Below are positions 7,499-62,839 of a stretch of DNA of 64,000 nucleotides, piece after piece. Where the stretch lies: assembly GCA_965218695.1 (NCBI GenBank), contig OZ244651.1:384001-448000 (forward strand). The letters are read 5' to 3'. Within the stretch, counting starts at the first letter, position 1; each line of letters begins with the position of its first letter. Both the position numbers and the translations under genes were made by a program. The notes beneath the pieces were generated by a model. The model was not told the DNA's origin. It did no database searches and saw only the letters and a program-made list of their open reading frames with translations. The DNA comes from Nitrosopumilus sp. Its GTDB lineage: Archaea; Thermoproteota; Nitrososphaeria; Nitrososphaerales; Nitrosopumilaceae.

Positions 7499-8376
7499 GA
7501 GGAGCTGAGCCTTGAGCGCAGCCTGTGGAAGCGCAGGGACGGCGCGTTGAGCAAGGATGCCGGCAAGAGTGAAATGCTGCACCGGATCGAGGTTTTTGAC
7601 GAAATAATCGGCAGCAAGACCAAGATTTACCGGGCCACGCTAAAAGACAAGGAAAAGTTCCAGTTCATGCTGGCGTATGCCAAGGAATACATGAAGCATT
7701 CTGGCCGGATGCCGCTGTTTCGCGACGACGACTCCAGAAGGTCCGATCCCGGAAACCGGTGCAAGCTGCACCTGAGGCACGCCCTGCTCATGGCGCTGAT
7801 GCACAAAAAGGACAACATCACCCAGGGCGTGCTTGGCGCAGTCTTCGGGATAGACCAGGCCGCCGTGTCGCGGTACCTCAAGGTGATCGACGCGATGCTG
7901 GAAGGGACGCTTCCCACGGCAGACAGCGTGTCAGGGGAGATATCTGCAGCCCCCACCAAGGAAGAGTTCAAGAAGATCGTGCCCGGGCCCGACGGGGGCG
8001 AGATATTCGCAGACGGCACGCACTGCCCCGTGCAGCGCCCGTCCGAAAGGACGGTCAGGCGCATGAAATACTCTGGCAAGAAAAAAAAGTTCACCATCTA
8101 TGTTAACCCTCCCCCGGACTTATCCAGTTTTTGCAACCAGCTTGTCACTTTGGGTATGTTTTTTGCCTTCTTAAGCATTACCTGCAAGCAGAATCCTGCC
8201 CGACCGGCAGAAAATACGGCTTTTTGCCCCGCGGTGTGACACGCATAATCCCTTCCGGGGGGTCTGGGGGGCTGGCCCCCCAGCATTCATGTAGAAACAT
8301 CCCATAGTTCCCATAATTTGTGCACAGCATCCGCTAGACTCGGCATTGCCTACTGGCACCACCACCGGTTCCACAC

Positions 8377-9495
8377 CTACTCGTCCTTCATGACTTGTCT
8401 GATCTTGGAGCGATACAGCTTTTCGTTTCTGTCCTCGTACAGGGTGTCTTCTGTCAGCATGTGCCAGATGATAGTCAGCATCTTGTTTGCCACGTGCGTT
8501 ATGGCGACGTGGTGCTTGTGCCTCTTCATGATGCGCGTGTAGTATTCCTTCACCCTTGCGTCATGGAGCACTGCAGCAAGCGCGCACTGGACCATGATCC
8601 AGTTGACCTTCCTGTTTGAGTCCTTTTTCATCCTGCCGTGGTATGACGTGTCGCCTGACTGGTGAAGCGTCGGGCACATGCCGGCCCAGGACACGAACTT
8701 TTTTGGGTTCCCAAACCGTTTGATGTCGTCGATCTCTGCTGCCAGCAACGCTGCAGAAAATACGTTCATCCCAGTCATGCTCAGCAGCAGCTTCGGGTAG
8801 TGGGTGTCGCGGACGTATCCCTTGATCTCGACTTCGGTCTTTTTTATCTCGTCGTTGCAGTGCCGTATCTGCGATATGCAGCCGTCCAGCACGAACCTGT
8901 CCCGAGAATTCTTCATGTCTGCCTCTTCAAGATACTTTAGGGCCTTTCCCCTCCAGATGTGGCGTCCTCCATCCTTTGGATTTATGTCGCATTTGTCTGT
9001 CAGCGTGTGCACAAAGTTGATCACTTTTGTCCGGTCCTGCACCAGGGTTATCTGGTACCTGAGGATCTGCTTCATTCCCCTGGATTCGGCCGAGCCTATG
9101 TGGCAGCTCGAAATCAAGTCGGCTCGCAGCAGGTGGGCAAGCATCCTTGCGTCTATGGTGTCGTTTTTTATGCTGGCCGACGAGATTGCCTTGATCTTGA
9201 ACGGATTGGCAAGCATCAGCGGGATTCCGGCAGATTCAAATGCATCAGCAGTCTTTATCCAGTGGTTTCCTGTGGATTCGCAGACTGCCCTGCACTGACC
9301 GTATGTGGCCTTTGCGTATGCGGCAAACTCTGATGAATCCCGGGACGTGTTGCTGTACGATGACTCTTCCAGGATTGTCCCTTCATGGCTCATCACGCAC
9401 GTCACGCATTTTCTCTTTCCTATGTCGATTCCAATACTCTTTTCTATTTCTTTCACCTCCTTTTTTTTGTGTGGCAGGCCGGAAGCTGCATCCAT
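8377..9495 (-). CDS. IS110-family DEDD recombinase; true start possibly ATA at 9447
   Basis: IGIDIGK, ESTGNHW, KNDTIDA, LHQSG, ANKMLTIIWHML; SD GGAGGTGA at 9460-9453. Confidence 0.95.
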   Translation of the reverse strand: MDAASGLPHKKKEVKEIEKSIGIDIGKRKCVTCVMSHEGTILEESSYSNTSRDSSEFAAYAKATYGQCRAVCESTGNHWIKTADAFESAGIPLMLANPFKIKAISSASIKNDTIDARMLAHLLRADLISSCHIGSAESRGMKQILRYQITLVQDRTKVINFVHTLTDKCDINPKDGGRHIWRGKALKYLEEADMKNSRDRFVLDGCISQIRHCNDEIKKTEVEIKGYVRDTHYPKLLLSMTGMNVFSAALLAAEIDDIKRFGNPKKFVSWAGMCPTLHQSGDTSYHGRMKKDSNRKVNWIMVQCALAAVLHDARVKEYYTRIMKRHKHHVAITHVANKMLTIIWHMLTEDTLYEDRNEKLYRSKIRQVMKDE

Positions 9496-9595
9496 CTATC
9501 AGGGCTCGAAGCCCAGTAACACAGCAGCTCGGATCGCCCCATTCAACAACTAGGTCTTTGTGACCAGGTGAATTTAGGGGTCAGCCCGCCACAGG
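9470..9595 (-). ncRNA. Predicted bridge RNA (target- and donor-binding loops) of IS110 #1
   Basis: Closing stem 9470-9479/9584-9593. Loop 1 holds plus-strand CAACAAC (9544-9550) and GGTGAA (9567-9572), matching target TTCAC-CA-ACAAC. Loop 2 holds CATCTAT (9493-9499) and AACACA (9518-9523), matching donor junction TGTATT-CA-TCTAT. Confidence 0.85.
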
Positions 9596-9597
9596 TA

Positions 9598-59140: not shown

Positions 59141-59951
59141 CCCTCCTGCGATCCCATGTCGCTTTCTACTGCATCGCGAGCAGTTTAAGGGCATTCTGAA
59201 TCACATGGTATGGCTTGCGGCTTTCAGTTTTTTCAGGTATCCTGCCGTGTCGATGTCACTTCTGCACTCCAGATCTCCACGGAAATAATTGCGTATCGCC
59301 CTGTCCATCAGTTCCGACGCCCCCTCTATGGACTCGTGCGTGGCGCAGAACACCACGGCTCCATTTGGTGATGATGCTGTTTGGACTGCAAAGTGGAAGA
59401 ACATAAAACAGGAAATCCGGATCAAGATTTGCCTGTACAACCGCATGATGCGCGCATCACAGGAGCCAATCGCAATGACGTGAGGCAAAGATGCATCTTG
59501 CCATACTGTCTTGATCATGAAGGTGGAACTGTAGGGAGGTTGTGCAACTCCCATGTGTTACGGGTATCCAAACCCGTTGATGTCATGTGTTGGCAATACG
59601 TCTGATCCAGTCCGATTTGGGTTGGTCGGGCTGTTTTTTAAAGATTTGTGGGCAGGTTCGACGTAAATCGGATATTTTGATCATTATTGCCCCCGATCCT
59701 GCAGAATCCGATGCAAATGTCATGGCTCGTGTGCAGGTACAGGCAGGCGTTGCGCGCGGATTTGGATGAATGGCACACAGCTACCGCTAGGAATCTCTCC
59801 GTATCCGGAGGAAAAGCAGGCCAAACTCCTACAGTCAATATCGTTTTCGGCAAGCCGGAGGGGGACAAGAGGGGGCGTTGAGCCGCCCCTCATCTGTGCA
59901 GGGGCGGCAAAACGCACCCGGGGTTGTTTAATCTCCCCATGGCGCCCAGAC

Positions 59952-61070
59952 TCAGGATTCGGCGATGCGCTTTATTCTCTGGAATTTTCGTCTGACAAAA
60001 TCCCTGTCCTGGGTCCTGTACTCGGCGTCGTGTTCAAGCATCTCCCAGACCCATTCGAGCATCTGCCTGGCCACGGCAACCCTTGCCTTCATGGGCCCTA
60101 TGCGGGCTGCCAGTCTCTGGTAGCGTGCCCCTATCCGGGCATCGTGCCGGACTGCGACGAAGGCGGCCTCGACCATGGCGCGGCGCAGCCAGACAGAACC
60201 GCGCTTTGTGATGCCACCGGTCCTGACTGTCTCCCCGCTGTTGCGGTGTTTTGGCGCCAGGCCTGCATACGAGACCAGCTTTTCGGCGTTGGCGAACCTC
60301 TTGTGGTCGACTATTTCGGCAAGTATGGTTACTGCCGTGACGTATCCTATTCCGGGTATGGTCATGATCAGTCGTGCCCGCCTGTCGCTCATCGCAATCC
60401 CGGCTATCTTTTTTTCAAATTTTGACACCTGCTTTAGTATGGTGTCGATGATGGCTAGGTGCGACTGCACCGCCATGCAGTCAACCTCCCTCAGGGGCAC
60501 GTCCTGCAGCCACTCGATGCCCTGCTCCGTAAACAGCCCCCCTTTGGGCTGCTCGTGCGGGTATTTGGCCAGGATCGCGTGGATGCGGTTCTTGGGGCCT
60601 GAGGCGGACATCTTCATGTCCAGGCGGGTGCGGGTCAGTTCGCGCAGATCCCGCGCGGGCTTGTCGGCCACGAACGATTCGGGGATCATGTCCAGCCTGC
60701 ACAGGTCTGCCAGCTTTTCCGAGTCGGCCTTGTCGTTTTTGTACACGGTTTCGGTTATTATCTTCGTGTTGTGCGGGTGGGCCAGCAGGGTGTCGATGCC
60801 CGCATCCTCGAGCATGTCGTGCACGACTATCCAGTAGTTGGCCGTGGATTCGCAGACGGCCGTGGCCGGCACGTACCCTTCCTTGTGGATCATCTTGATG
60901 AATCCGGTTATTCCCCGAACGTTGTTGTCAAATTCAGTCTGCTTTAGTATGTCCTTGGTACTTCCCTTGATCGTTGTAACGCATTTCTTTTTGTGAACGT
61001 CTATTCCAACGTAATACGTGTTATCACCTCCTTTGCAGTGTATCGGACCCGACCAGCGGAAAACTCCCAT
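59952..61070 (-). CDS. IS110-family DEDD recombinase; true start possibly ACG at 61019
   Basis: VGIDVHK, ESTANYW, KNDKADS, IPGIG, RNSG, VAVARQML; SD GGAGGTGA at 61031-61024. Confidence 0.95.
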   Translation of the reverse strand: MGVFRWSGPIHCKGGDNTYYVGIDVHKKKCVTTIKGSTKDILKQTEFDNNVRGITGFIKMIHKEGYVPATAVCESTANYWIVVHDMLEDAGIDTLLAHPHNTKIITETVYKNDKADSEKLADLCRLDMIPESFVADKPARDLRELTRTRLDMKMSASGPKNRIHAILAKYPHEQPKGGLFTEQGIEWLQDVPLREVDCMAVQSHLAIIDTILKQVSKFEKKIAGIAMSDRRARLIMTIPGIGYVTAVTILAEIVDHKRFANAEKLVSYAGLAPKHRNSGETVRTGGITKRGSVWLRRAMVEAAFVAVRHDARIGARYQRLAARIGPMKARVAVARQMLEWVWEMLEHDAEYRTQDRDFVRRKFQRIKRIAES

Positions 61071-61210
61071 TCACCGTCAAAGCGGTATTTGACCATCCGC
61101 ATACCTTGAGTCACTCTAACTAACGCCCTCATACGTGGCAAGTTGCACTCGACTCTCAGGTCCAACAGGGTAAATGCCATGATCGCCGCTATAACGGCAA
61201 CACATGGCGT
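61045..61210 (-). ncRNA. Predicted bridge RNA of IS110 #2
   Basis: Closing stem GGACC/GGTCC (61045/61163). Target loop with CTAACTA (61116-61122) and AGTTGCAC (61141-61148) matches site GTGCAA-CT-AACTA. Donor loop with CTCCCAT (61064-61070) matches core plus right end. Confidence 0.8.
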
Positions 61211-61585
61211 CTAACTACGTTCGCCACTACACGCTATGAAACAAATGATGCCCGAACCGGCCATGAGTTTCCTACAAGACAGTCCAAAAATGAGGGCTAA
61301 GATTCATAGCTAAAACCACATTTTTGGACAAGTTTTTAGGAAAGTCGCGTTTTGTTTTGGCGTCGTCGGATTCATTGCATGTAGTGCAACATGGCAGGAC
61401 TTAAACCCCTATGGGCAACAACGTGCCGCCTACCTGTCAAACATGGCTAACGTATACCAAAAGTGAAAAGTTGATGCGATTGTCACATATTTTACCACAT
61501 CTAAAGTTATACCAATTTCACGTCCCACAGTCAATGAAGATCAAGACGATGTTGAAAAGATACGCCGCTGAGACAGACTGCGATA

Positions 61586-62839
61586 TACCAAAAGTGAAAA
61601 GTTGATGCGATTGTCACATATTTTACCACATCTAAAGTTATACCAATTTCACGTCCCACAGTCAATGAAGATCAAGACGATGTTGAAAAGATACGCCGCT
61701 GAGACAGACTGCGATACCAAGGACCGCATGATGCTGATCATCAGAGTCAAACGTGATGGAATAACCATGAGGGATTCTGCAAAATCCCTGGGAAAGTCAG
61801 CCTCGTGGGGCTACAAGTGGCACGAGCGCTACCTGGAAGTCGGATTTGACAGGCTGGGAAACATGCCGCGCTCCGGCAGGCCGACCAAGGCGAGCAAGGC
61901 AGACATGAAGAAGATCAGAAAGGCCGCATGCAGGAAACCTGTCTGGACTGGCATGGAGATGCAGCAATACATCCAACAGAAGACCGGAGTGAAGTACGAA
62001 CTCGGATATGTGCGCCAGATACTGCGCGGGTGGGGCTATTCCCAAAAGGTTCCCGTAGGAAAACATGCAAGAAGGGCGCCTGACGAGGAGATCAGGAAAT
62101 TCCAAAAAGAGATGCCAGAGCTTATAAAAAAAAGAACAGTGAAGGAACAGTCGTAGCGATACAGGACGAGTCCATAGTAATCTCCGATGCGCGGCCGCGA
62201 AGACGCGGCTACACCAGGAAGGGAATACGGGCGTTTTTCACGTACACCGGCTCACACTCCAAGACGATAATCCATGGACTAATCACCACGGACGGCAGGG
62301 GCATGTTCCGGCAGTACGATGCGTTTACCAAGGACACCTTTGAGGACTTTCTAAGGCAGGCGATGTACAGGTTCAAGAAGATCTGCCTGATCATGGACAA
62401 GGCCTCCCAGCACAGGGCATCAAACATACGCAAACTGCTTGATGGCACAGACGGCCTGGAGATAATCTTCCTGCCAACTGCGACCCCGGACCTGAGCGCC
62501 ATAGAGACGTACTGGAGGGATCTCAAACGGGCAGTGCTTGACGTGCCGTACACCAGCCTGAGCATGCTCCGCGAGGCGATCACCAGGTACGCGAGGTACA
62601 AAAAACCAAATCTGGTAGTCGAGAATTTTCTGTACAGGGCCATCTAGAACGACATCAAACCACACCGGATCCACGCCGCCTAGCGTGTGCCATGCACGGC
62701 GCATCAGAGCATGCAATGTCTAATGTTCGGGGCGTCTTTTCTCGTCATTTGGGAATTCAACGCACCTCGTAATTTCCAGAGATGGATGTCGCATCAAAAA
62801 TTTATGAGCGATTTTGATATGAATTTTTCATTGCTGGTA
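61586..62839 (+). mobile_element. IS630 type C full copy (1254 bp)
   Basis: Apparently identical to 9598-10851; TA TSD 61584-61585 and 62840-62841. Confidence 0.95.
61665..62647 (+). CDS. IS630 transposase, -1 frameshift at A8G 62126-62134
   Basis: Same two ORFs as 9677-10659. Confidence 0.85.

Follow-up and report, generated by a model that had tools for sequence, protein, structure and literature searches.

How does an insertion sequence of an ammonia-oxidising archaeon find its insertion site, and is the address written in an RNA encoded next to its transposase gene? This question is raised by a locus in a 64,000-nucleotide stretch of Nitrosopumilus sp. DNA (GenBank assembly GCA_965218695.1, contig OZ244651.1, positions 384,001 to 448,000; G000:C1:384001-448000 in our genome collection), hereafter called the window, which derives from a host genome of 2.63 Mb with 52.8% G+C. 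Here, we describe an IS110-family element of 1,661 base pairs (bp) on the minus strand at window positions 59550-61210, designated copy A. It is very probably a recently active IS110-family insertion sequence with IS1111-like features, consisting of a DEDD/serine recombinase and a bridge RNA (seekRNA) encoded upstream on the same strand. An earlier interpretation of the same letters, made without database searches and called the sequence-only reading below, had proposed an IS110 element with an upstream RNA containing a target and a donor loop and with a CT core; this proposal is now backed by protein domains, by catalytic residues that align, by covariation across relatives, and by a paralogous copy of the target that is uninterrupted.

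Three copies of the element (A, B, and C) are present in the genome. They stop at the same terminal bases, and each is flanked by CT on both sides, at 59548-59549 and 61211-61212 in the case of copy A. The sequence-only reading had recognized the duplicated CT, but its span of 59550-61212 takes in one of the two. Copy B is 100% identical to copy A across all 1,661 bp and is split by a 1.43-kb insertion, and copy C (G000:C1:1720107-1721761) is 86% identical to A, with a frame break in the transposase gene. The flanks to the left of A and B are only 94% identical, whereas the element copies themselves do not differ at all. Because the copies are identical at two loci whose host flanks have diverged by 6%, the comparison points to recent movement of the element. 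Sequence inspection further revealed 9-bp subterminal inverted repeats, with the near-end arm CCATGTGTT at 61199-61207 (gene strand) and the far-end arm AACACATGG at 59551-59559, inset by 3 and 1 nucleotides (nt) from the respective ends; a second copy of the far-end motif lies about 32 nt further inward. The non-coding ends comprise 191 bp upstream of the gene and 402 bp downstream of it (59550-59951).

Copy A sits inside another insertion sequence. The 183 bp to its left (59367-59549, plus strand), which are 94% and 88% identical to two other loci of the genome, represent an IS5-family remnant, composed of the 3' end of the transposase gene and the inner portion of the right terminal inverted repeat, and terminate in GTGCAA-CT, the left target half plus core. 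On the other side, the core CT and AACTA, the right target half (together 61211-61217, plus strand), form the final 7 bp of the IS5-family repeat. Since the IS110-family element was inserted in the right inverted repeat of its IS5 host, 5 bp (7 bp with the core) from the outer end, A and B share CTAACTA on this side and then diverge. At copy B, the IS5 host is complete (C1:2317065-2318391), with 16-bp terminal inverted repeats and the 8-bp direct duplication AGATGTCT on either side, and its encoded protein matches the IS5-family model NF033579 with 167.8 bits (cut-off, 140). In the left inverted repeat of this host, at C1:2317065, the 13-mer GTGCAACTAACTA is uninterrupted and contains a single CT. 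No other exact unoccupied copy exists in the genome (chance expectation, about 0.08), and at the level of sequence this one confirms the element boundaries. The predicted target GTGCAACTAACTA does not stand by itself but is part of an IS5-family terminal inverted repeat. An empty-site comparison had been named as the check that might move the boundaries; carried out on the paralogous repeat instead of the locus itself, it agrees with those proposed. Insertion is site-specific, with a short shared core and no conventional target duplication, CT being present on both sides of A, B, and C and once in the unoccupied paralogous site.

Similar sequences occur elsewhere. At the paralog that is 88% identical to the left flank, the far end matches 12 of the 13 target positions, and the near end, beside a tRNA-Leu gene, reads GTGCAACTACGCA, matches 10 of 13, and is empty. 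In contigs of two mixed-sample runs (X1 and X4), the far end of the element is joined, at window position 59544, to other flanks also ending in GCAACT, which suggests more insertions at similar sites in related populations. Insertion at a fixed position in the terminal inverted repeat of another transposon is also a property of IS4321 and IS5075 of the IS1111 family (Partridge and Hall 2003; as treated in the portion of PMC11187229 drawn on here); their hosts are bacterial Tn21-family transposons, in contrast to the archaeal IS5-family host found here.

The letters that match this target reside in the leader of the transposase gene. In the target loop, the 5' side GUGCAACU (61141-61148) matches the flank GTGCAACT at 59542-59549 in 8 of 8 positions and is complementary to the gene-sense strand of core and downstream flank. 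The 3' side UUAGUUAG (61116-61123) is identical to upstream flank and core, with 7 of 8 positions matching overall and UAGUUAG fitting CTAACTA at 61211-61217 in 7 of 7. Each guide pairs with a different strand of the 13-bp target GTGCAA-CT-AACTA, with an overlap at CT, and together they are the only matches of at least 7 nt to either flank, core included, in the whole element. In the donor loop, the 3' side AAUGGGAG (61064-61071) contains AUGGGAG, which matches CTCCCAT at 59548-59554, i.e., far end plus core, in 7 of 7 positions, and the 5' side AUGGUC (61091-61096) faces near-end positions 2-7. The donor loop is therefore complementary to the joined ends of the element as in a bridge RNA, completely with its 3' side and partially, in copy A, with its 5' side. 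The hairpin, arms, loops, and matches listed in the sequence-only reading are all present.

These segments are embedded in a structured region of approximately 166 nt (61045-61210, minus strand; nt 1 is window position 61210). According to the minimum-energy fold, it begins with a 5' hairpin (61176-61209) formed by CGCCAUG (nt 2-8) and CAUGGC (nt 30-35). A closing stem between GGACCUGA (61156-61163) and UCGGGUCC (61045-61052) then encloses both arms. The target-binding arm (61108-61155) has the stem GAGUCG/UGACUC (61150-61155 with 61108-61113) and an inner stem UGCC/GGCG, and the donor-binding arm (61056-61100) has the stem GCGG/CCGC (61097-61100 with 61056-61059) and an inner stem UACCG/CGGUG. 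The leader folds with -65.9 kcal/mol (z = -2.87), and 1 of 200 shuffled sequences was as stable. In a consensus structure derived from 28 distinct leaders (alignment A1), the four arm stems comprise 19 pairs, 10 of which show compensatory double changes. The closing stem was misaligned by MAFFT and was therefore assessed separately by duplex energies: cognate strands paired with a mean of -11.68 kcal/mol versus -9.54 kcal/mol for non-cognate strands, a sum reached in 4 of 3,000 permutations, and swaps such as CUGA/UCAG, CCAA/UUGG, UUGA/UCAA, and CCGA/UCGG were found across relatives. The leader thus contains what characterizes a bridge RNA or seekRNA, a structured region with two internal loops enclosed by stems. 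Rfam yielded no match at gathering score in the window and none at E values up to 5 within 59500-61300, and folding of a hypothetical transcript across the joined ends gave no clear alternative structure. The RNA is presumably transcribed and bound by the recombinase.

Comparison with relatives showed that the guides change together with the DNA they face. A search with the 212-nt leader in 401 genomes of the class detected homologues in 26 genomes (host included), among them 24 of the 223 genomes of the same family. Downstream ends could be located for only 22 of the 31 elements; L047, L048, and L067, with no recognizable near end, were left out of the end comparison, and L065 runs to a contig end. 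Allowing a one-base offset for cognate and control pairs alike, the 3'-side target guide matched the flank at the RNA-bearing end with a mean of 6.46 of 8 positions in cognate versus 3.78 in non-cognate combinations (28 unique pairs), and the 5'-side target guide matched the reverse complement of the other flank with 5.70 versus 3.73 of 8 (20 unique pairs). For the 5'-side donor segment and the near-end positions, the values were 4.53 versus 2.98 of 7 (19 unique pairs). In each of the three tests, none of 20,000 permutations reached the observed value. Two segments of one loop hence match opposite target strands, overlap in the core, and covary with the target. In contrast to these, the 3'-side donor segment hardly varies, and neither does the far end ATGGG that it matches. 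The sequence-only reading had remarked on a weak match of the second donor guide, and rightly so: in relatives, this segment covaries with near-end positions 2-7 and never pairs with the core, its place there being occupied by an A-rich run. The match is weak because the segment does not extend into the core. Two related loci deviate from the rest. L039 (G129:C1:827160-829800) is an internally deleted copy in genome G129, 1,290 instead of 1,611 bp long, that has kept both ends and the RNA, and L052 (G250:C2:1650420-1653060) has GG in place of AG as its far-side core.

Closely related copies illustrate the same coupling within an almost constant scaffold. Between the leaders of A and C, nearly all differences fall in the two target guides and one arm of the 5' hairpin; compared with A, the two copies in genome G129 are changed in little else than the guide segments. 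The 3'-side guide of copy C, GCAUAAG, fits its own flank in 7 of 7 positions, and the guides of the two G129 copies, GCGAAAG and CACGAACU, fit theirs in 7 of 7 and 8 of 8.

The protein encoded downstream of this leader is a recombinase of the expected type. Counted from an ACG that aligns with the ATG of relatives, its gene spans 59952-61019 on the minus strand, and the open frame extends to an ATG at 61070 (372 amino acids). Both its domains (PF01548, 3.6e-19; PF02371, 1.8e-28) and its catalytic residues place it in the IS110 family in the ISfinder sense, i.e., among elements with a DEDD transposase, and it scores 241.7 bits against the NCBIfam model NF033542, "IS110 family RNA-guided transposase" (cut-off, 140). 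It aligns with the structurally solved recombinases of IS621 (8wt6, E = 1.9e-18, about 70 bits) and ISCro4 (E = 2.7e-18). The alignment with 8wt6_A retains the catalytic D, E, D, and D and the serine of the SG motif, with GIDVHK, CEST, DKADSEKLA, and NSGET of the archaeal protein facing GIDTAK, IEAT, DTVDARMLA, and ESGSS of IS621, and a GL-P----SG motif is also present. The nearest named relatives are from Nitrosotenuis, Nitrosotalea, and Nitrosopumilaceae, which, in a genome that also contains an archaeal SSU rRNA, assigns the host to the ammonia-oxidising Nitrososphaeria. Matches on plasmids, detected by tblastn, were named only "IS110 family transposase" or carried names not assignable to a group.

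Several observations weigh against a recently active, RNA-guided element. One concerns the gene start. The proteins of relatives begin with MYYIGIDVHK, and their start ATG is replaced by ACG (61017-61019) in A, B, and C, in the G129 copies, and for two database proteins that are 89% identical. Upstream, the frame offers only one ATG (61068-61070), which lies 51 nt before this ACG, within the donor guide AAUGGGAG. Judging from these letters, translation would start either at a non-canonical ACG or at this upstream ATG. Use of the latter is not a feature of the family, given that its frame runs into a stop in more distant relatives. In the donor loop, AUGGUC pairs with just 4 near-end letters, or 5 counting G-U. 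As to the covariation, the elements are kin, and the permutation counts overstate their independence accordingly; ahead of the target-guide test, four strings (guides or flanks) were corrected manually, two misparsed rows were kept in the donor test, and several relatives score only 4-5 of 8. The downstream flank of copy C fits its 5'-side guide in only 3 of 8 positions in fixed register and in 5 with an offset allowed. Finally, contigs of four mixed-sample runs over 59300-61500, which provide a hint only and in which the right junction was covered, contained neither a circle junction, i.e., an end-to-end joint, nor an empty allele.

With regard to copy C, a sequence fitting its 5'-side guide (AACGAAC) sits 7 nt further out, and the mismatch may stem from an insertion out of register or with only half a match, or may have arisen later. 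A search for an empty paralog of its downstream flank led to a 97% identical flank (C1:538444-538549) whose similarity breaks off a few bases short of the junction.

The altered start codon gives rise to the alternative that survives best, namely that the element is structurally complete yet immobile, loss of the ATG having silenced the transposase and left A and B as relics. We regard this as unlikely. Besides the replacement of ATG by ACG in A, B, C, and the G129 copies, the frame break in copy C and the interruption of copy B by another insertion sequence would fit a decaying family. However, ACG is common to copies that are 86-92% identical and to database proteins at 89% identity, which implies that it predates continued spread of the element. 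Moreover, A and B are identical at two loci with flanks that are 6% diverged, and a strong ribosome-binding-like site, GGAGGUGAU (61023-61031, minus strand), precedes the ACG by 3 nt and is conserved in an alignment with related sequences, while an in-frame ATG is available 51 nt upstream. The description of copy A as intact holds for the open frame and the catalytic residues, which are kept, but not for the start codon, where ACG stands in place of the ATG of relatives. We infer that copy A may be active at present.

For a recently active, RNA-guided element, a sequence of events can be proposed along the lines described for IS621, ISEc11, and ISEc21. By analogy with these, the element would leave its site as a circle whose joined ends constitute the donor site. 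The segments of the donor loop would recognize these joined ends, and the complex of recombinase and RNA would pair donor with target and exchange strands at CT. Strand exchange at a CT core would explain why CT is found on either side of an inserted copy.

Which kind of IS110-family element would act in this manner is a separate question. IS621 of the IS110 group is the bridge RNA system with solved structures (8wt6-8wt9; Durrant et al. 2024, PMC11208160). To the extent that its account bears on the comparison, the archaeal element shares with IS621 a DEDD/serine recombinase that has both Pfam domains and aligned catalytic residues, the position of the RNA upstream of the gene, the succession of 5' hairpin, target-binding internal loop, and donor-binding internal loop, and the pairing of both guides of a loop with opposite strands, overlapping at a CT core, including one imperfect donor guide. 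It differs from IS621 in the order of the guides in each loop, which is the opposite one when read in the orientation of the element, in its 9-bp subterminal repeats, compared to the 2-3 bp reported for IS621-type ends, and in the closing stem, by which the two arms are joined in a three-way junction. The proteins have little similarity (E = 1.9e-18, about 70 bits), and the archaeal host makes a sigma-70 junction promoter inapplicable.

One might consider a standard IS110-group element of the IS621/ISEc21 type. The upstream RNA, in the usual place of that group, and the IS621-like layout of hairpin and loops would be in line with this, but guide order and ends make it improbable. In the sections of Siddiquee et al. 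2024 (PMC11187229) that address this point, seekRNAs of the IS1111 type carry the top-strand match 5' of the bottom-strand match, and ISEc21, of the IS110 type, carries them the other way round; the presence of subterminal inverted repeats is characteristic of the IS1111 type, and the RNA is usually located downstream of the gene in IS1111 and upstream in IS110 elements. In copy A, the 5' side of the target loop is complementary to the top strand, the reverse of the order in ISEc21 and IS621. The top-strand match thus lies 5' of the bottom-strand match as in IS1111, not 3' of it as in the IS110 group, and instead of the absent or very short subterminal repeats of that group we found 9 bp, a hallmark of IS1111 and within its range of 7-17 bp. 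Furthermore, the downstream non-coding end (402 bp) exceeds the upstream one. The guides themselves, on the other hand, are found upstream of the transposase gene, as in the IS110 group, and not in the downstream non-coding end as in IS1111. With its guide order and its 9-bp repeats, the element is IS1111-like by sequence features, but its RNA occupies the IS110-type position.

In the same source, ISEc11, ISPa11, and ISKpn4, IS1111 elements with a seekRNA, resemble copy A in their subterminal inverted repeats with short terminal extensions, a top-strand match located 5' in the RNA, matches that overlap in the target, and the GL-P----SG motif; they carry the RNA downstream of the gene, unlike copy A, and the likeness is one of sequence features. 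Exceptions to the usual arrangement are also on record there, with a long non-coding region upstream in ISMtsp17 and on both sides in ISHvo10 and ISAcp5. The archaeal element likewise has both (191 bp upstream and 402 bp downstream), a comparison with these IS1111 relatives that covers the lengths of the non-coding regions.

A related proposal would keep the canonical IS1111 arrangement, with the working guide RNA in the long downstream end and the leader as a mere 5' untranslated region. The length of this end (59550-59951), the conservation of its last 110 nt or so, and its TATA-like box speak for this idea, which we nevertheless consider very improbable. The downstream end contains no match of at least 7 nt to either flank, its middle part is poorly conserved and shows insertions and deletions between A and C, and relatives with short downstream ends of about 60-130 nt retain the upstream RNA. 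All covariation between guides and DNA falls in the leader. Least credible of all, and barely worth entertaining despite the shortness of each match (7-8 nt), is the notion that the flank-like segments of the leader are chance matches or functionless captured target DNA, as they lie in loops of covarying stems, change in step with the flanks across 28 distinct relatives, and have no equal elsewhere in the element.

The downstream end may nonetheless have a role in expression of the RNA. The TATA-like box CTTTAAAAAAC (59633-59643, minus strand) lies about 87 nt inside the far end, as a candidate archaeal promoter reading toward and across this end. Among 20 distinct related ends (loci L038-L063), 18 have a TATA-like heptamer, defined by a pattern picked after inspection, that ends 85-88 nt from the far end. 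This position holds whether the downstream end is long or short, and in the short ones the box falls inside the last codons of the gene. The box is possibly an archaeal promoter. If so, transcription would begin some 60 nt short of the far end, and only in the circular form would it run across the junction, which would parallel the junction promoters of bacterial elements. Also in the downstream end, a G+C-rich hairpin (59882-59908, minus strand) directly follows the stop codon of the transposase gene and is kept in both A and C.

It is tempting to speculate, though the idea is tentative and may well prove wrong, that ammonia-oxidising archaea carry a distinct hybrid bridge-RNA sub-lineage, which would combine IS1111-type guide order and subterminal repeats with an upstream three-way-junction RNA and an archaeal TATA promoter about 87 nt inside the far end, possibly with translation starting at ACG or inside the donor guide. 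In this case, the primary transcript of the circle would start in the far end, read through the joined ends, and carry the donor site before processing. IS110-family recombinases of archaea are already known, 662 having been counted in one study (10.1101/2024.06.21.599552). Our literature search retrieved no description of bridge RNAs or seekRNAs in ammonia-oxidising archaea, although published supplementary ISfinder-wide tables and seekRNA folds may cover relatives.

A further IS110-family element in the window, element #1 (8181-9597), had been assigned the same RNA architecture. Brief inspection of intact copies of its family revealed the same guide order, in keeping with that assignment. 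The leader of the window copy is cut by an IS630-family element starting at 9596, and other copies of the family reach at least 40 nt further upstream. The intact members have the palindromic target GTTGAAT ... ATTCAAC.

Insertion sequences abound in the genome as a whole. More than 20 near-identical IS630-family copies are present, along with about a dozen additional IS110-family loci (about 30% protein identity) and elements of the IS5- and IS481-like kinds, and several of these elements lie within the ends of others. To the right of copy A lies an IS630-family element whose first approximately 133 bp are tandemly duplicated (61453-61585 and 61584-61716, 100% identical). The 1.43-kb insertion in copy B (G000:C1:2319884-2321314; locus L002, 2993-4423) is located just upstream of the start codon of B. 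Its terminal inverted repeats, about 28 bp long, are imperfect, and its 386-amino-acid open reading frame comes closest to IS481-family transposases, with a score below the cut-off (180.7 versus 224 bits); the insertion is bordered by an unusually long, 16-bp direct duplication of host sequence. In genome G236, a related element (L063, G236:C1:1014350-1017000) adjoins sequence resembling the terminal repeat of this IS481-like interrupter, another instance of an insertion beside the end of an insertion sequence.

In mechanism, parts, and logic, the element corresponds to the bridge RNA and seekRNA systems described in 2024 and leaves the known mechanism unchanged; its hybrid layout is worth noting but would not surprise a specialist. 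Our analysis adds a well-delimited archaeal example to a class of recombinases under development for genome writing. Copies A and C and those of related genomes, in which one scaffold carries differing guides that fit differing flanks, represent a series of natural reprogramming that is useful for deriving the pairing rules of the IS1111-type guide order, less studied than IS621. The locus documents, in an ammonia oxidiser with unusually many insertion sequences, elements that target the ends of other such elements. It also shows that the position of the RNA and the order of the guides need not go together, a point relevant to the divergence of the IS110 and IS1111 groups.

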